Shown here: positions 3,345-11,125 of the stretch, piece by piece
How the letters are laid out: every line of letters starts with the position of its first letter
How positions within the stretch are numbered: the first letter of the stretch is position 1
Source of the DNA: Schmidtea polychroa
Taxonomy: Eukaryota
Length of the DNA: 64,000 bases
Reading direction: 5' to 3'
Assembly (NCBI GenBank): GCA_044892525.1
Contig: CM097885.1
Location: 29,452,001-29,516,000 of the forward strand
The notes under the pieces: generated by a model
What the model was told of the DNA's origin: nothing
Database searches by the model: none
What the model saw: only the letters and a program-made list of their open reading frames with translations
Program-made: the position numbers and the translations under genes

Positions 3345-4136
3345 ATGGATACTTGGAAACCAATTTTAAATAGACATAAGAGTAAATTCAATAATAAAGT
3401 ATTTCCTGATAATTTTAGATTATTAATTGTTGGTTCTTCTGGATGTGGAAAGAATGTACTTGTTTTGAGAATGTTACTTGAAGATGATTTTTTAGATTAT
3501 AATAATTTAATCTTTTATTCTACAACCATAAATCAACCAGAATTACAACTTTTGAAATGTGGATTTGAAAATAAATTAACTAAAAAAGCAATAATTGATA
3601 TTTTTAAAAATCAACATAGGTGTCCTGAAGAAGTTTTTCAACCTTGTGATATGGTTGATTGGTATAAGGAAAAGATTTTAGAATCAGATATTAGTAATAA
3701 AAATGATTATATTTGTGAAGAAGGGCAGGAGGCAATTCAAGTTTTATTCTCTAATAAACCTGAAGATGTTTTACATTGTGATTTACTTCCTAAAGATAAA
3801 AAGAATCTAGTTATATTTGATGATGTTGTTAACATGAAAAATCAAGAGATTCAAAAGAGTTACTTTACACGAGGTCGACATAATAATTGTAATGTTATTT
3901 ATATATCTCAAACATATTATGCTTTAGATAAAAATTCAATAAGAAATAATTCCAATTGTTTTATATTTTTTAAATTAGATCGCCGTGATAAGAATATGAT
4001 TTATAATGATTTATTTTCAAATGTTGAACCTGATAAGAATATGTTTGATATGTTTGTTGATAATCATTGGAAAGAAAAATATAATTATATTTATTTGGAT
4101 AGAGAAGAAGCTGAAATATGGAAAAGTTTGTTTTAG
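3345..4136 (+). CDS. A32/FtsK-like DNA packaging ATPase
   Basis: Walker A GSSGCGKN, Walker B LVIFDD, FTRGRHNN arginine finger, YISQ and IRNNS motifs. Confidence 0.95.
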   Translation: MDTWKPILNRHKSKFNNKVFPDNFRLLIVGSSGCGKNVLVLRMLLEDDFLDYNNLIFYSTTINQPELQLLKCGFENKLTKKAIIDIFKNQHRCPEEVFQPCDMVDWYKEKILESDISNKNDYICEEGQEAIQVLFSNKPEDVLHCDLLPKDKKNLVIFDDVVNMKNQEIQKSYFTRGRHNNCNVIYISQTYYALDKNSIRNNSNCFIFFKLDRRDKNMIYNDLFSNVEPDKNMFDMFVDNHWKEKYNYIYLDREEAEIWKSLF

Positions 4137-4147
4137 GGCTTGTCGAC

Positions 4148-5551
4148 TTAAAAATCTGTTTTCTGTAGTTCATTATTATAAAATCTTCCTAATATTTTTT
4201 CATTATTTAAATCAAAGATGCTATATGTTATTGGAGTTGTATAATTTATTTTATTTATAATAAAAATTTCATTTGTCCATTTTGCTGTGAATCCTTTTTC
4301 AAATTTATTTTTATATTTAAATATTCTTACTCGGTCACCAATTTTAAACTTTGGTTTTTCAATAACATCATTTTCAATATTTACCACTTTAATGGTTTCA
4401 GGCTTCATGGAAGCATTTAAAGGTGTTAATTTTATAGAACTATGTACATCATTATTATATTCATTTACAATCTTTTGTAACAATTCATTGTTCCATTTTT
4501 GTTTTCCAATAGCAGTAAAATATTTCCACATTTTATTTTTTAATGTTCTATTTAATCTTTCAACTACGACTGCTTTTCCTTCGTTTTCTGTTGAATATAA
4601 TTTAATATCATTTTCATTTAAAAACTTTGTAAAAACTTTGTTATAAAATTCTGTTCCTTTATCACACCATAAATATTTTGGAATTCTTTGATATTCTTCA
4701 AATATATTTTCAAATGCTTCTGTAATAGAATATCCTGTTTTATTTTCTAAACACCTTGCAAAAGCAAATCTTGTATATAAATCTATTACAGTTAAAATTA
4801 TTTTATATTTTTCAGGGTCTGATGATTTGGGCATAAAGACTAAATCTGCAGACCATGTTTGATCTTTTTCATGTACTTGAACTTTTAAATATTTTTTATT
4901 TTTTCTAAATTCATGGTGTAATTCCTTTGCATATTTTATTTCTGATTCTGTTGGGGTTTGTAAACTAGTCTTGGATATATTCTCAAGGGATCTTTCAATG
5001 TCTGCTTGTTCGATAATCTTTTTATAATCAACATCTTTTGCTATTCTAGGAAGTCTTGCACCCATGGTGATCGGACTGTGTCCTAAGCCTATGAAAATCT
5101 TACCTTTCATTGCTAATTTAACTAGAGCTCTTTGAATCTTTTCTTGGGTTGATGGATTTTGGATACTATTTAAATCATGTATTAAATTCACATCTGCAAC
5201 ATGTCTATCTCTAAGATTTGTTGAATTGTATGCAATGTCATGTTTTAAAGCTGCTTGATCAATTCTATTTATTGGTTCTTCTCCTTGTTTGGGATTATTA
5301 TTTTTATCTAATCTAATATCTAGACGTGTTCCTGGTCCAGTATAGTTGTGTTTAAATAAATGTCTTTCACCTGGATATTTTTCTGTAGTAAAAGGTTTTA
5401 ATATTGAAGATGTTGTTTTTGAAGATTGCAAATCGCCTCCAGCTCGTGGAATTAGATCACCTCCTGTATGTTTTTTAGTTTTTAAATGACTTGCTTTGTG
5501 ATGTTTTGTAACTTGACAATTACAACTTTCACATCTCCAATAGAGAGACAT
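4148..5551 (-). CDS. Retroviral-type DDE integrase fused to an N-terminal C2H2 zinc finger and a parvovirus-VP1-like phospholipase A2 domain
   Basis: CESC..H..KKH zinc finger; NYTGPGT...DQAALKHDIAY...RHVAD PLA2; WSADL, LWCDKGTEF, VVERLNRTLK DDE core; FKIGDRVRI..FEKGFTAKWT C-terminal domain. Confidence 0.92.
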   Translation of the reverse strand: MSLYWRCESCNCQVTKHHKASHLKTKKHTGGDLIPRAGGDLQSSKTTSSILKPFTTEKYPGERHLFKHNYTGPGTRLDIRLDKNNNPKQGEEPINRIDQAALKHDIAYNSTNLRDRHVADVNLIHDLNSIQNPSTQEKIQRALVKLAMKGKIFIGLGHSPITMGARLPRIAKDVDYKKIIEQADIERSLENISKTSLQTPTESEIKYAKELHHEFRKNKKYLKVQVHEKDQTWSADLVFMPKSSDPEKYKIILTVIDLYTRFAFARCLENKTGYSITEAFENIFEEYQRIPKYLWCDKGTEFYNKVFTKFLNENDIKLYSTENEGKAVVVERLNRTLKNKMWKYFTAIGKQKWNNELLQKIVNEYNNDVHSSIKLTPLNASMKPETIKVVNIENDVIEKPKFKIGDRVRIFKYKNKFEKGFTAKWTNEIFIINKINYTTPITYSIFDLNNEKILGRFYNNELQKTDF

Positions 5552-5580
5552 TTTAAAATGTTAAAATATCAGGGATTATA

Positions 5581-6867
5581 TCAAGAATCTCCCCTAACAT
5601 TTTCGATTATTGAAATCTTTCCACCATATAATTTCATTTCTATTTTCTTTTCTTCTAATATTAATACTTTAGCTTTAAAATTAGAATCCTTTGTTACATG
5701 AAGTGTAACATCAACATTATTTATGGCTAGGCGATCATCTTGGTCTGAAACATTTATACAAAATATAGAATATAAATTTTTGAAATCTTCTAAACTTAAT
5801 TGCGGTTCAATTTTGAAATCATAACATGTTTCAATATAATTTAGATATGGGAATATGTTTTCATTATTTTCAATATTAAATTCCATTCTATTTATTGGAT
5901 AATAAGAACTATTTAATTGAATTTGGATTGTTTTTAAATTATCAACTCCAATCTTTTGAATAAACAAGTTGTTATTTTTTTGGAAAGATGAATCTACTTC
6001 TTTGAATTCAATCAAGATATATCTTGGTCGGTATGCTAAATTTGCTACCTTTATAGAATATGTTGAACCCTCTGTCATACTAAATTCACTACAGATTCTA
6101 TTTAAATAATTTACATTTATAGACTTGTTGGAATTTAATCTTTCAAGGAGTTTAATCTCAGAATGTGGGTTTAATGTCCATTCAGGTATATGTAATTCAA
6201 GTGTTGATAATTTTAATTTAGCTTTTGTATCTACAGCTCCATAGAACAATCTTTTATCACCTTCTACTCTATTACAGATGAATTCTATAAAAACATTATG
6301 AAGTATACGATTACAGTTTTGAAGGAATCCAAACAAGTGTTTTAATTCAAAATAACCTTCAAATTTTTTAGATTTATAAAGTTCAGCTCTTTTATGGTAA
6401 CCATGGTTTACATCTAAACCATCTTTATCTAAATCCCCTTTATTAACATCAGGAATCCAACCTGTTAATTCACCATATTCGTTTTTATAATCACAACCAG
6501 TCAAAATAAAATTTAACATTGTAGAATATACTCCCGGATGCAAAACAGTTTCAATTTCTGATGATCCTAGTTTTAATCTCATGTTGGAGAATAAATTTGG
6601 AAAGAAATTATTTTCTAGGGTTATATCTTTGTTTGCTTCAATTTCTAATTCGATTTTATAATATAATTTGGCATTACAAATATCTATAGGGTTTGATGTT
6701 TGAAGAGATTGAAAAACTATATCACCCCTACGATTTAAGTTTGCAATAGATCCTGAAGTTGGAGAGATTTTAAGTACATCATTTTTCTTGATTTCACGAG
6801 TAAATTCTTTATTATAATCAAGATTTAATTTATTTTTTTCTTGAATTTTAAGATTTATATTATTCAT
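5581..6867 (-). CDS. Polinton major capsid protein (double jelly-roll)
   Basis: 428 aa with NNFFPNLFSNMRLKLG..EIE, LKHLFGF, RPRYILIEF, LNS.YYP and DFKNLYSIFCINVSDQ motifs, in a capsid-gene context. Confidence 0.88.
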   Translation of the reverse strand: MNNINLKIQEKNKLNLDYNKEFTREIKKNDVLKISPTSGSIANLNRRGDIVFQSLQTSNPIDICNAKLYYKIELEIEANKDITLENNFFPNLFSNMRLKLGSSEIETVLHPGVYSTMLNFILTGCDYKNEYGELTGWIPDVNKGDLDKDGLDVNHGYHKRAELYKSKKFEGYFELKHLFGFLQNCNRILHNVFIEFICNRVEGDKRLFYGAVDTKAKLKLSTLELHIPEWTLNPHSEIKLLERLNSNKSINVNYLNRICSEFSMTEGSTYSIKVANLAYRPRYILIEFKEVDSSFQKNNNLFIQKIGVDNLKTIQIQLNSSYYPINRMEFNIENNENIFPYLNYIETCYDFKIEPQLSLEDFKNLYSIFCINVSDQDDRLAINNVDVTLHVTKDSNFKAKVLILEEKKIEMKLYGGKISIIENVRGDS

Positions 6868-6923
6868 TTTTATATATTAAAATTTACACACACACAATAG
6901 GATTAATTAAATATATTTTGTAA

Positions 6924-6997
6924 GCCATTATAGCGGAGTGGGAATAGGCTTCAATTTTATCACCGGGAGTACCGGGTTCAATTTTCGATTTTGGTCA
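6924..6997 (+). ncRNA. tRNA-like Pol III unit 1 (degenerate)
   Basis: A box TAGCGGAGTGG at 6931, B-box-like GGTTCAATT at 6975, T7 run after. Internal T4 runs may terminate transcription early. Confidence 0.45.
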
Positions 6998-7166
6998 ATT
7001 TTTTTCGATATTTTTTTTCAACGGAATCTGATTCAGCGTACTGATTTTAGTATATATTTAAATTTTCAGATAGATCTAAGTGGTAGTTGTCGAGAAAATG
7101 AATAATTAATTATCAATTTCATCAATAAATAGTCACACATTAACAACTTATTTTATATTGAGTATA

Positions 7167-7239
7167 GCTCTAATAGCTTAGTGGTAATAGCACTCGACTG
7201 CATTGCCAATACCAATGGGTTCAAATCCCATTTCGGTCA
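7167..7239 (+). ncRNA. tRNA-like Pol III unit 2 (Cys GCA-like loop, anticodon stem unpaired)
   Basis: A box TAGCTTAGTGG at 7174, perfect T arm ATGGG-TTCAAAT-CCCAT, CT-GCA-TT at the anticodon-loop position, T7 terminator. Confidence 0.65.
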
Positions 7240-7425
7240 TTTTTTTCCAAATTTTTTTTTAACGAAATATTGATCAGCATACTCGATTTAGTACTTGTAC
7301 AAATTTTTAATGAGATTGGTCAACGGCAACTTTTGGAAATTTAAGATCAAAAACGTTTTAACTACCAAAAAATTAATATATCCAATAAAAAAATATTTAT
7401 AAAAAAGGATGAGTTAAAAGAAAGA

Positions 7426-7659
7426 ATGAGAAATGAATTGAATGAAGTTAAACATAAGAGAATGAAAAGAAGAGAAGAAGAACCATTAGAATACATCAAA
7501 GAGTTGATGGTAGATAATGAAAAGTATCGACATTTTTATATGAAGGCTGTAGATGTTGCTGATATAAGATTGAAGAAAATGAAACAATTACAGGAAAGAG
7601 TTAAAGAACTTGAATCGATTATTTATAGTCTAAAAAATGACAAAAAATCCAAACCTTGA
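7426..7659 (+). CDS. Small charged coiled-coil protein of the Polinton
   Basis: 77-aa ORF rich in K/E/R with heptad-like periodicity. Its stop codon overlaps tRNA-like unit 3. Confidence 0.5.
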   Translation: MRNELNEVKHKRMKRREEEPLEYIKELMVDNEKYRHFYMKAVDVADIRLKKMKQLQERVKELESIIYSLKNDKKSKP

Positions 7660-7725
7660 TGGCGCAGTGGGCTAGACTGACACAGTGGTTCAAAATGCTA
7701 GCGGTTCAAATCACATCTGAGGTTA
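7653..7725 (+). ncRNA. tRNA-like Pol III unit 3
   Basis: A box TGGCGCAGTGG at 7660, B box GGTTCAAATC at 7703, terminal stem AACCTTGATG/CATCTGAGGTT, T9 terminator. Confidence 0.6.
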
Positions 7726-7871
7726 GTTTTTTTTTCAACATAAAATAATATTAAAAATTTGAAAATAATATTGAAAATAGTGTGGGTATCTTATATTTAT
7801 AAAGTACTTGTATATTTTATTTTATTTTATTTTTTTATAAATTAAAAATTAAAAAAATGACAAAAATTCAA

Positions 7872-7945
7872 ACCTTGATGGCGCAGTGGGAATAGACTGG
7901 CACAGTGGTTCAAATGGATAGTGGTTCAAATCACATCTGAGGTTA
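7872..7945 (+). ncRNA. tRNA-like Pol III unit 4 (duplicate of unit 3)
   Basis: A box at 7879, B box at 7923, same terminal stem, T8 terminator. Confidence 0.6.
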
Positions 7946-8429
7946 GTTTTTTTTCAACATAAAATAATATTAAAAATTTGAAAATAATATTGAAAATAGT
8001 GTGGGTATCTTATATTTATAAAGTACTTGTAAATTTTATTTTATTTATTTTATTTTTTTTTTTTTTTTTATTAATTAATTATTTTTTAAACATAAATATG
8101 AAAAAAAAAATATTGAAACGGGTGATGGTGGCGCACCGGTAATTATCGCCACCTGTCTTTCGAACACCACCGGATCGATCCCGGTAATGTGCACATTTAT
8201 TTCTCAGTTGTTTTCGGACCTCTTTCGAATTCGCTTTCGAATTCATTTGTACTTTCGAGCAGCACACTTAAAACGCCGATGAAATTGTATTCGAGCGAGA
8301 AGCGAATAATAAGGTGTGCTGCTATTATCGAATTGATTCTGATGTATGAGTCTGGCCAGCTTGTATATTGGAAGAGATTTGATAAACGAAAGAGGTTGAA
8401 TATAAAAAAAAATGATCCGGATCAAAAAA

Positions 8430-8492
8430 AAAACTGTTGAGAGGACAGTGAAAAAAAAAAAAAAAAAACCACTGTCCTCTCAGAGCAGTTTT
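8430..8492. repeat. Subterminal hairpin of the Polinton
   Basis: AAAACTGTTGAGAGGACAGTG, then an A-run loop, then CACTGTCCTCTCAGAGCAGTTTT. Confidence 0.85.
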
Positions 8493-8626
8493 ACTATTTC
8501 ATAAAATTTTTTATTTTTAAAACTTTCAAAACCTTAAGGTGATCAGGCGACCTAGATCATTATGAATTAGGTAATCTGATATTCTTATAACATTAAATCC
8601 TTATAACATTAAATCCTTAAGACCAA

Positions 8627-8870
8627 GTAGTGAGGAATCTATGCACCCCGTTACCTTTTCTCGGAATTACTAATCTATAAATACATCTATTCCGAACTTT
8701 TTTACTTTTAAGGGAAGAAATTAAGGGTTAATGGCAATAGGGGACAAAGTTTAAAAGTTAAAAAAAGTGAAGAATATGGGGTAAAAAAGCATATAAATGT
8801 GGAAAATATGGGTCAATAGCGCTGTTTTTTTTGAGGGTGGGGGTGCTGGGGTGCATAGATTCCTCACTAC
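8627..8870. mobile_element. ~245-bp MITE-like element with 23-bp TIRs
   Basis: GTAGTGAGGAATCTATGCACCCC (8627-8649) and its exact reverse complement (8848-8870). No TSD seen. Confidence 0.75.
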
Positions 8871-11125
8871 CTTTGATATTACTCTTCTTCAGTCAAAGGA
8901 TCAAAATATAAGAAAAACATTCTTGAATGCTGACCGCATAATTCCTCAATCACTTCCAATCGACATCGAAAACAAAAACTTTCCATTTCATATCTTTAAT
9001 AAAACGCTTCAGAATGGAGAAAAGGCATCTCGGGATTGGATTTATTATAGTGAGTCGACAAAATCTATTTACTGTGCTTGCTGCTTATTTGCAAATGAAT
9101 TAGCAAGTAATTTCACAAAAGGTTGGAGCCGTGATAAAGGTTGGCGAAAATTAAAAGACAAAGTTCCTGCACATAAAAATTCAAATTCTCATTTTAAGAA
9201 TTATGTCAATTGGAAGAATTCTGTAGCTGCTGAGAAGAATGAAACACAAGTGGAATCATTGTTGATGATAAATATTCACGATGAAACAGAAAAATGGAAG
9301 AAAATATTGACACGCATACTGGATGTTATTTTATTTCTTGCTGAACGTTGACTTGCATTTTTTGGAGATTCGTTTAAACTTGGAGATTCGTCGAATGGAA
9401 ATGTTTTAGGAATAATCGAGCTATTAAGCAAGTATGATGTGATTCTTAGCGAACATTTGACTAAAGTAAAAAATTCTCAAAAGGAAGGAAAGAAACTTCA
9501 AGTTCATTATCTTTCTAATGATTTACAAAATGAGTTTATACAAATATGCGGAGATATGGTTGAGAAAAAAAATTCTATCGGAAATAAGAAATGCAAAATA
9601 CTATTCCATAATTGCTGACAGCATTCCTGACAGCTCCCACAGTGAACAGTTTTCGATAGACATACGTTATGATGACCTGCAGTCAAATTCATTGATCCAG
9701 GAAAGATTTATTTGTTTTGACGAGTTTTACGGAAAAACTGGAAAACAAATTGCCATCAATATCCAAAAACTTCTTGACACCCGAGGTTTGATTATGAAAA
9801 ATTGTGTGGCTGGAAGTTTTGACAACGCAAGTTCAATGTCAGGAATAAATATTGGCGTTCAAGCTTGGCTTAAAGAGGCAAATCCTGAATTTATGTTCTC
9901 TCCTTGTTGCAATCATACACTTAATTTGGTAGGAAATGATGCAACATTATGCTGTACGAAATCAAACGACTATTTCGTGAAATTTCAAACGCTCTTCAAT
10001 TTTTTCTCTTCATTTACATCTCACTGGGCTATATTAAAGAAGCACTGCAACAAGTCGCTTACGAATGTATCAAAAACCAGACGGGATGCTCGTTTTAATG
10101 CCGCAAAACCAATCGTGTCTTCTTTGAATCTGATAAATTTGGCCCTTAAAGAAGTTGATTCGAATCTAAATCAATCTGCAGAATCCAAATATACATGCAA
10201 GTCGCTTTTAAAATTCACATCTCGATATGAAACGGTGGTCATGAATTCTATTTGGCTCCCTATACTGACAGCAGCACAGAACACAAATTTATTGTTAGAA
10301 GCAAGAGATGCAACTTTGGACGTCGAGACCGAGAACATAGATGCACTAATTAATTCAATAAAATTAATGCGATGGGAAAAGGTGATGAGTGATAGTAAGG
10401 AATATGCTGAAAAATTCTCCATTCACGCATCATTTGAAATTAAAAGAAAGTTTATTGATGAAGCAGCTGTTGAGTTACATTATCAACAAATATTCAATAA
10501 GATCATTTCAGTTTTACAAAAATCATTACAAACTCGCTTTTTAAGAATGATTGAAATTTGTGATAATTTTAAATTCCTGTGGACCTTCAATAGCATTGAT
10601 GTAGACATATTGCAAAATCAGTGCGACAAGATTAAAATTAAATTTTCGGATGACATTTCAACAGACCTGTATGATGAAATGATATTTTTTAAAAGCATTT
10701 ACGCAACCAACTTCAAATCATCAAAGCCAAAAGAAGTGCTTAAATCTATTATTGAAATGAATTTGGAGTCAATTTTTCCAAAGCTTGTAGTTGTATTAAG
10801 ATTATTTTTGGCAATCCCAGTTTCTGTAGCCGAGTCTGAACGTACGTTTTTTGCTCAAAAACGTATTAAGAATTTCTTGAGATCTACAATGGCACAAGAG
10901 CGGCTAAATGGATTAGCAATGCTGCATATTAATAACGATATTGCAAGAAACCTAAATTTTAGTGAAATAATTGATAAATTTGCAATTTCAAAAGCCCGTA
11001 AATCATTAATTTAATAAAATTTGTTTTTATATTGTGTTGTCGCTAACTATATATATTTTTTAATTATTAAAAAGGGGCCCCAAAAAAATTTGACTCAGGG
11101 CCCGCACTCTCTCTCCTAGGCCCTG
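8871..11125 (+). mobile_element. hAT transposon (ZMYM1/TTF-type transposase), 5'-truncated and pseudogenised
   Basis: RDWIYYSES..IYCACC, YYSIIAD, SFDNASSMSG, C.NHTLNL and PVSVAESERTF..LRSTMAQERLNGLAML motifs. In-frame TGA at 9349-9351, then a frameshift. The 3' end GGCCCTG at 11125 fits a CAGGGCC TIR. Confidence 0.9.

Follow-up and report, generated by a model that had tools for sequence, protein, structure and literature searches.

The Polinton and its right end

The window analyzed here is a stretch of 64,000 nucleotides of Schmidtea polychroa DNA, and positions given without a locus name refer to it. The element at its start is a Polinton/Maverick of the adintovirus type with a length of ~15.5 kb. 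The left end of this element lies ~6.6 kb before the window (L031:3418). The following genes and features were recognized in and around its right end:

3345..4136, plus strand: packaging ATPase (A32-like; Pfam Pox_A32, E 9.7e-9)
4148..5551, minus strand: integrase of the rve type carrying a PLA2-like domain at its N terminus (Pfam rve, E 4.9e-12; Phospholip_A2_4, E 3.8e-9)
5581..6867, minus strand: double-jelly-roll major capsid protein (DJR-like_dom, E 1.7e-23), pointing away from the Pol III units
6879..7368, plus strand: rDNA-spacer cassette of 490 bp, flanked by a 6-bp AAAATT repeat and missing from many sister copies
6924..7005, plus strand: unit 1, tRNA-like Pol III unit common to the rDNA spacer, with internal T4 runs
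7167..7246, plus strand: unit 2, tRNA-like Pol III unit common to the rDNA spacer, in which the octamer CGACTGCA from the anticodon arm of host tRNA-Cys(GCA) persists
7426..7659, plus strand: 77-codon ORF (ORF77) that matches no Pfam family; its stop codon lies within the 5′ end of unit 3
7631..8871, no strand assigned: right terminal repeat with short unit(s), long Pol III gene and terminal unit, mirrored at the left end outside the window
7653..7735, plus strand: unit 3, Pol III unit of the terminal repeat in which a B-box-like motif is duplicated, nearest to tRNA-Trp of four host tRNAs tested
7872..7954, plus strand: unit 4, which arose recently from unit 3 by tandem duplication
8122..8492, plus strand: candidate long Pol III-type gene with A box (8129), B box GGATCGATYC (8172), multi-hairpin body (8213–8400), A-tracts and a 3′ hairpin (8435–8486)
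8626..8871, no strand assigned: terminal unit that has AGTAGT ends, contains a 23-bp inverted repeat and varies between subfamilies
8872..8877, no strand assigned: 6-bp target-site duplication TTTGAT, found again immediately beyond the left end

A single ORF (4148–5551) encodes both the integrase and the PLA2-like domain. Toward the left end, in locus L031, there are three ORF pieces that we take to be polymerase-like on the basis of motifs. ORF77 lies in the 486-bp gap between units 2 and 3 and was found in some subfamilies only; its Atlas neighbors are unnamed small viral proteins of low recognition value. The Polinton family comprises well over 1,500 copies in the genome. Just beyond the right end a broken hAT transposase (Pfam Dimer_Tnp_hAT) is present at 8797–11014.

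Sister copies of the element part after CTCACTACT at 8870/8871, and the terminal repeat measures ~1.05 kb. The left repeat (L031:3418–4470) corresponds to 8870–7812 at 88% identity and carries its own unit-3-type gene at L031:4401, located on the minus strand and facing outward. Since a gene of this type is present in both repeats, units 3 and 4 are genes of the terminal repeat. In 14 of 30 loci centered on the head of the long gene the module adjoins the 5′ end of the polymerase. The terminal unit itself is 200–250 bp long, has AGTAGT ends and a short inverted repeat of its own, and differs sharply among subfamilies with 88–99% capsid identity (L194–L263). Polinton ends appear to be swapped as modules.

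Anatomy and origins of the four short units

A sequence-only reading of this DNA had proposed an array of four tRNA-like Pol III units on the plus strand, starting at 6924, 7167, 7653 and 7872, and these positions were borne out. The A boxes are found at 6931, 7174, 7660 and 7879, the GGTTCAA B boxes follow 44, 44, 43 and 44 nt downstream, and runs of T7, T7, T9 and T8 begin at 6999, 7240, 7727 and 7947; the unit starts are spaced by 243, 486 and 219 bp. A strict A-box/B-box/T-run pattern picked out the four units and nothing else in the 64-kb window, and it gave no match in 200 mononucleotide shuffles of the window. The boxes, their tRNA-like spacing and the T-run terminators support the presence of type-2 Pol III promoter units inside a Polinton. 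With a loose version of the pattern 12,343 forward matches were obtained in the genome, which combine units from Polintons, rDNA and satellites and may also include host tRNAs.

Low tRNA scores had been predicted for the units. ARAGORN reported no tRNAs, and the Rfam tRNA model was passed by unit 2 only, at 32.4 bits (cut-off 29) and with several broken pairs. No tRNA cloverleaf was found in the units by ARAGORN, Rfam or folding, and there is no sound anticodon or acceptor stem. The 5′ acceptor strand is missing from 23–24 of 60 distinct unit-2 copies (~40%), unit 1 contains internal T4 runs at 6955, 6982 and 6989, and the core of units 3 and 4 includes a second B-box-like GGTTCAAA. In global alignments to four host tRNAs unit 2 scored 53.5 with tRNA-Cys and 52.5 with tRNA-Lys, which does not separate the two, while unit 3 scored 51 with tRNA-Trp versus 31–37.5 with the others. 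The host genes for tRNA-Lys, tRNA-Arg, tRNA-Cys (992 matches), tRNA-Trp (850 matches) and SRP RNA occur in long homogeneous tandem arrays (L051, L074, L111, L266, L268) with periods of 424, 278, 281, 284 and 593 bp.

The proposal that a single family gave rise to all four units by amplification within the element, its cores diversifying, was not supported. Units 1 and 2 are shared with rDNA and units 3 and 4 are unrelated to them, with alignment scores of 39–55 between the two pairs and 114–128 among units 3 and 4 themselves; the cores differ because the units differ in origin. Within each pair the described relationships were confirmed: the flanks of units 1 and 2 are shared and diverged (73% over 78 nt), and units 3 and 4 are a recent duplication (92–96% identity). 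Explaining the 486-bp gap as two 243-bp periods with lost repeats was rejected because the gap contains an ORF and the cassette junction. The array recurs in sister copies: all 30 loci picked by similarity to this stretch contain 3–5 units each, two of them being four-unit loci where the regular expression undercounted. Units of the 3/4 type number one, two or three per sister copy. The possibility, raised in the same reading, that the units belong to a host family independent of Polintons proved correct in part, namely for units 1 and 2, which occur in the rDNA spacer and are absent from many sisters.

The cassette harboring units 1 and 2 has 93–95% BLAST identity to spacer loci that neighbor 18S, 5.8S and 28S genes. 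Its sequence is also part of a ~13.4-kb tandem repeat identified by Rfam as 45S rDNA, where it is located in the intergenic spacer between 28S and 18S, antisense to the rRNA. In this spacer a third, diverged unit is found 237 bp upstream, and unit 2 is present in up to three copies with a 243-bp period. The host 45S spacer as such carries three diverged tRNA-like Pol III units with a period of ~240 bp, antisense to rRNA, in ~680 copies (L032:1745–2921; L115, L116). Counting of junctions in the genome gave 1419 for capsid–cassette, 683 for the rDNA spacer and 169 for the cassette-less form, the last number covering one junction type only. The exact cassette-less junction, 6884/7369 across AAAATT, was observed in 6 of 30 loci. 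The cassette is carried by 20 of 70 capsid loci, a non-random sample ranked by similarity to a distant homologue.

Three observations favor a recent capture of this cassette from the spacer. The identity of ORF77 to the ORF77 of the window is 98–100% in those cassette-bearing copies that possess it and 87–96% in cassette-less ones. The spacer flanks past the Polinton breakpoints match older dispersed copies, downstream at 86% and upstream at 89% (one locus). Furthermore, separate spacer pieces are present in other Polinton ends (L210, L199, L049). We conclude that the cassette with units 1 and 2 was probably captured recently from the host rDNA spacer, and with good though not full confidence the direction of transfer was from spacer to Polinton. 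In a tree of unit 2 built with 25 of the 60 distinct Polinton repeats the rDNA copy falls inside the Polinton copies, with no branch strongly supported, and about 10 of the 60 Polinton copies have apparently derived letters in common with rDNA. In view of these two results repeated or reverse exchange between spacer and Polinton is possible. An origin of the additional upstream spacer unit from a second Polinton family was unsupported, as one exact non-rDNA junction was found versus 683 rDNA junctions. Two further relatives of the spacer were noted. A 1245-bp satellite (L033:2794–5756) combines a relative of unit 2 with sequence from downstream in the rDNA spacer at 86% identity, and a dispersed 89% copy of the upstream spacer unit (L277:5986–6250) ends 5 nt from where the cassette starts in the spacer.

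For units 3 and 4, with at least 2933 matches in the genome, variation was analyzed in 131 distinct copies taken from 196 matches, a shared variant being one present in at least four copies. Such variants occurred at 1 of 21 A/B-box sites and at 24 of 45 other sites of the units (p 1e-4), and the duplicated B-box-like core motif varied at none of its 8 sites. Rare changes struck the boxes as well. Haplotypes combine the 5′ and 3′ halves of the stem in different ways, and there is no stable fold. Thus of the conservation that had been anticipated, that of the boxes was found in units 3 and 4, and stem covariation was not, since no consistent stem is kept.

These data bear on the function originally suggested for the array, in which the four short RNAs themselves would be VA-like decoys or small-RNA precursors whose cores diversify for different partners. 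The boxes and T runs are kept in all four units and the units were duplicated repeatedly, as this model would have it. In addition, for MHV68 the tRNA-like part alone rescued pathogenesis (PMC8223928), which indicates that short tRNA-like RNAs do not need a body to act. However, three of the four units fold no better than shuffled sequences (z-scores of 0.07, −2.74, 0.31 and 0.08 for units 1–4, with only unit 2 beating its shuffles), the acceptor halves are shuffled between haplotypes with no covariation, and the differences between cores track origin. A search of the variable cores against element genes, rRNA and SRP gave nothing beyond chance (best E 0.067), and complementarity to the element or to rRNA was likewise not above chance. 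We consider the short-RNA model distinctly unlikely.

A candidate long gene in the terminal repeat

A fifth Pol III-type gene candidate, overlooked in the sequence-only reading, begins 168 bp after unit 4 and is ~370 nt long. Among 115 distinct copies the A box is present in 115 and a GWTCRANNC B box in 112, mostly 43 nt apart; the A box has a C at one purine position. T4 runs are found at 8211 and 8489 and the first run of five or more is the T6 at 8507, which gives 8211, 8489 and 8507 as candidate terminators. The tail of the gene contains the perfect palindrome TGATCCGGATCA (8409–8420) between two A-tracts. Rfam returned no family at cut-off for the long gene, and no VA match at E <=10 in 5500–10500 or 8050–8560. 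Descent from SRP (7SL) RNA was rejected on the basis of a local score with z 0.2 versus the host SRP gene, and comparison to rDNA, done without a shuffle control, produced only background-level local scores. Summed contig depth peaks over 8122–8463 in two of four presumed-RNA runs, a measure that cannot rank genes or show transcript ends and that serves here as a lead only.

The predicted fold of the 376-nt sequence has a minimum free energy of −125.8 kcal/mol (z −7.43), which none of 100 shuffles equaled. It includes a 59-nt imperfect hairpin at 8326–8384, and the head of the gene does not form a cloverleaf in it. In all 109 copies the core folds better on the plus strand than on the minus strand (−68 vs. 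−43 kcal/mol), and the latter also folds (z −5.8). Using 83 confident, probability-based pairs and defining shared variants as those present in at least three copies, we found that at paired sites the base pair survives in 11 of 16 shared variants versus 10 of 39 singletons (Fisher p 0.005). When compensated pairs were counted once the result was 9 of 14 (p 0.02). Since the copies are related and the structure was derived from one copy, these p values are indicative only. An example of a pair-keeping series is A-U/G.U/G-C at 8266/8315. The other five of the 16 shared variants break pairs, three of them in a poorly aligning A/T-tract helix. Full compensation at 8442/8478 lies in a near-perfect inverted repeat, where DNA template switching can produce such changes.

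The same hairpins might function in single-stranded DNA, while the element is replicated by strand displacement or is packaged, and not as RNA. Protein-primed replication in this class of elements displaces single strands, and both this and the location of the hairpins in the terminal repeats, together with the folding of the minus strand, would fit such a role. On the other hand many G.U-type alleles are frequent, tRNA-spaced A and B boxes head the structure, and subfamilies that do not possess it have complete ends. We give this explanation very little weight.

A different origin of the fold would follow if the long gene were a dead tRNA-headed SINE with head, body and A-rich tail, inserted in the terminal repeat and still bearing the fold of its SINE past. 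The layout is SINE-like, with tRNA-spaced A and B boxes, a body of ~200 nt and A-tracts. The genomic distribution argues against this. The head gave 2372 and the body 2715 matches, and these counts and that of units 3/4 fit Polinton ends alone. All 30 sampled heads, taken from the first 4.9 Mb of contig 1 in a search that diverged families would escape, are located in Polinton ends; each has a gene of the unit-3/4 type immediately upstream and further Polinton-end sequence next to it. Moreover, the pair-keeping changes originated within Polinton lineages. Overall, a dead SINE seems improbable.

The module was detected in 59 of 70 sampled capsid loci, which were ranked by protein similarity and are not a random set, and it occurs there with several different terminal units. 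It is absent from 10 of the 70, several of which end in a complete 200–250-bp terminal unit right after the capsid gene; the module is therefore dispensable for spread. On a capsid tree of 31 rows the absence of the module requires six changes and the cassette two, and midpoint rooting places the root near module-less copies, which is weak evidence. Among 34 metagenomic capsid loci, most of them too short to reach an end, no convincing A/B/T unit was recognized by regular expression (34 of 34) or Rfam (18 of 34). One of these distant relatives has a GC-rich intergenic hairpin (L162:5436–5515) with a chance-level mir-754 match and no visible A/B boxes. Viral contigs contained no capsid relative and no match to the long gene head, and in 150 kb representing more distant Polinton families the module was not found, the one related sequence being a piece of rDNA spacer.

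That some subfamilies do without the module raises the possibility that it is passenger DNA. Polinton ends would then pick up host Pol III-type fragments, such as rDNA spacer, tRNA pieces or an old SINE-like gene, and these would be copied without benefit. The repeated spacer pick-ups and the spacer pieces elsewhere in the genome show that such copying is common, and the frequent lack of the 5′ stem in unit 2 and the internal T4 runs of unit 1 are in agreement with a lack of function. Such a scenario does not account well for the conservation specific to the boxes in units 3 and 4, for the pair-keeping and strand-biased variation of the long gene, or for the presence of the module in most of the sampled loci alongside several different terminal units. 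We regard passenger DNA as an unlikely explanation for the module as a whole.

A putative host-transcribed module and its relatives

The explanation that we prefer, and to which we assign slightly less than an even chance, is that both terminal repeats of this Polinton lineage contain an outward-facing Pol III module that is transcribed by the host. The host factor TFIIIC would bind the internal A and B boxes, as suggested by motif conservation. The functional product would most likely be the ~370-nt tRNA-headed RNA from 8122 to ~8492. Its long imperfect hairpins might act in a VA- or TMER-like manner, as an abundant dsRNA-like decoy or as a substrate for Dicer or other dsRNA-binding proteins, so that the RNA could serve as a decoy for a dsRNA pathway or as a small-RNA precursor. 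The long gene is accordingly a better candidate for the VA/TMER-like function than the four short units. Units 3 and 4, if they matter at all, may do so as DNA that offers TFIIIC and Pol III additional places to load upstream of the long gene; they may keep the ends open and could block the inward spread of heterochromatin. Units 1 and 2 appear to have joined the element recently, most likely when a microhomology-guided event copied them from the rDNA spacer, and would be passengers or extra promoters.

In a planarian, Polintons are piRNA-silenced, with repression by nuclear PIWI at the chromatin level (PMC8532177). A more far-reaching interpretation is that animal Polintons possess Pol III transcription units of their own, that the module produces an abundant, structure-selected RNA directed against small-RNA or dsRNA defense of the host in the manner of adenovirus VA RNA, and that extra tRNA-type promoters, even those from the rDNA spacer, keep the ends open against piRNA-guided heterochromatin. 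We propose this tentatively and consider it on balance doubtful.

If the module is expressed, virus-encoded Pol III RNAs such as VA, EBER and TMER would extend to Polintons, which are proposed relatives of adenoviruses, and a possible counter-defense mechanism would be present in an element family of well over 1,500 copies. The long gene, at ~2,400–2,700 copies, could yield abundant RNA even if it were only weakly active. The predictions suggest that these Polintons make their own non-coding RNA. Apart from the Polinton, the presence of tRNA-like Pol III units in the host 45S spacer, antisense to rRNA, and the traffic of spacer DNA into mobile elements are of interest by themselves. Searches of the open literature yielded no account of Pol III genes in Polintons; a pseudo-tRNA list in the supplement of PMC7962491 could include relatives of the units.

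Genes related to tRNA are found in virophages and MELD viruses, which are related integrating viruses (PMC6905037, PMC8502044). Those tRNAs are predicted to be canonical, unlike the Polinton units, which fail ARAGORN and have no sound anticodon or acceptor stem. The Cassandra and Ajax retrotransposons resemble the Polinton in being mobile elements with host Pol III promoter sequence in their terminal repeats (PMC10946416). They are LTR retroelements with type-1 (5S) promoters, whereas the Polinton is DNA virus-like and has type-2 (tRNA) promoters plus a piece of 45S spacer. For the short units a comparison to chromatin barriers is relevant, since tRNA genes and TFIIIB/TFIIIC are cited in this role in PMC9540200. 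Like such barriers, the Polinton units keep promoter boxes while the fold decays, and they flank the coding region at both ends. The known cases are host loci, and a barrier role in the Polinton is putative.

For the long gene the relevant systems are viral. Adenovirus VA RNA I and II and the EBV EBERs have an internal A/B promoter, a highly structured RNA and a T-run end, all of which are predicted in the Polinton, and adenovirus, like the Polinton, belongs to the same broad lineage of dsDNA viruses. VA RNAs are inhibitors of PKR and also saturate Dicer (PMC4378190). With ~160 nt they are shorter than the ~370-nt Polinton gene, which is located in the terminal repeats, is present in two copies per element and has no Rfam VA match. 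PKR is a vertebrate protein, so any target of a Polinton RNA in this host would be another dsRNA pathway. The TMERs of MHV68 are clustered type-2 Pol III genes near a genome end and have a tRNA-like 5′ part (PMC8223928, PMC4378190). They differ from the Polinton module in several respects: the short Polinton units stop at T runs and carry no hairpin cargo, the head of the long gene has no cloverleaf, which makes cleavage by RNase Z doubtful, no triplicated A box was noted, and the carrier is an integrated Polinton. The long gene has predicted hairpins behind a tRNA-spaced head, an arrangement that may be comparable to that of the TMERs, and as predicted from its sequence the module would add to the known class of virus-encoded Pol III RNA genes.
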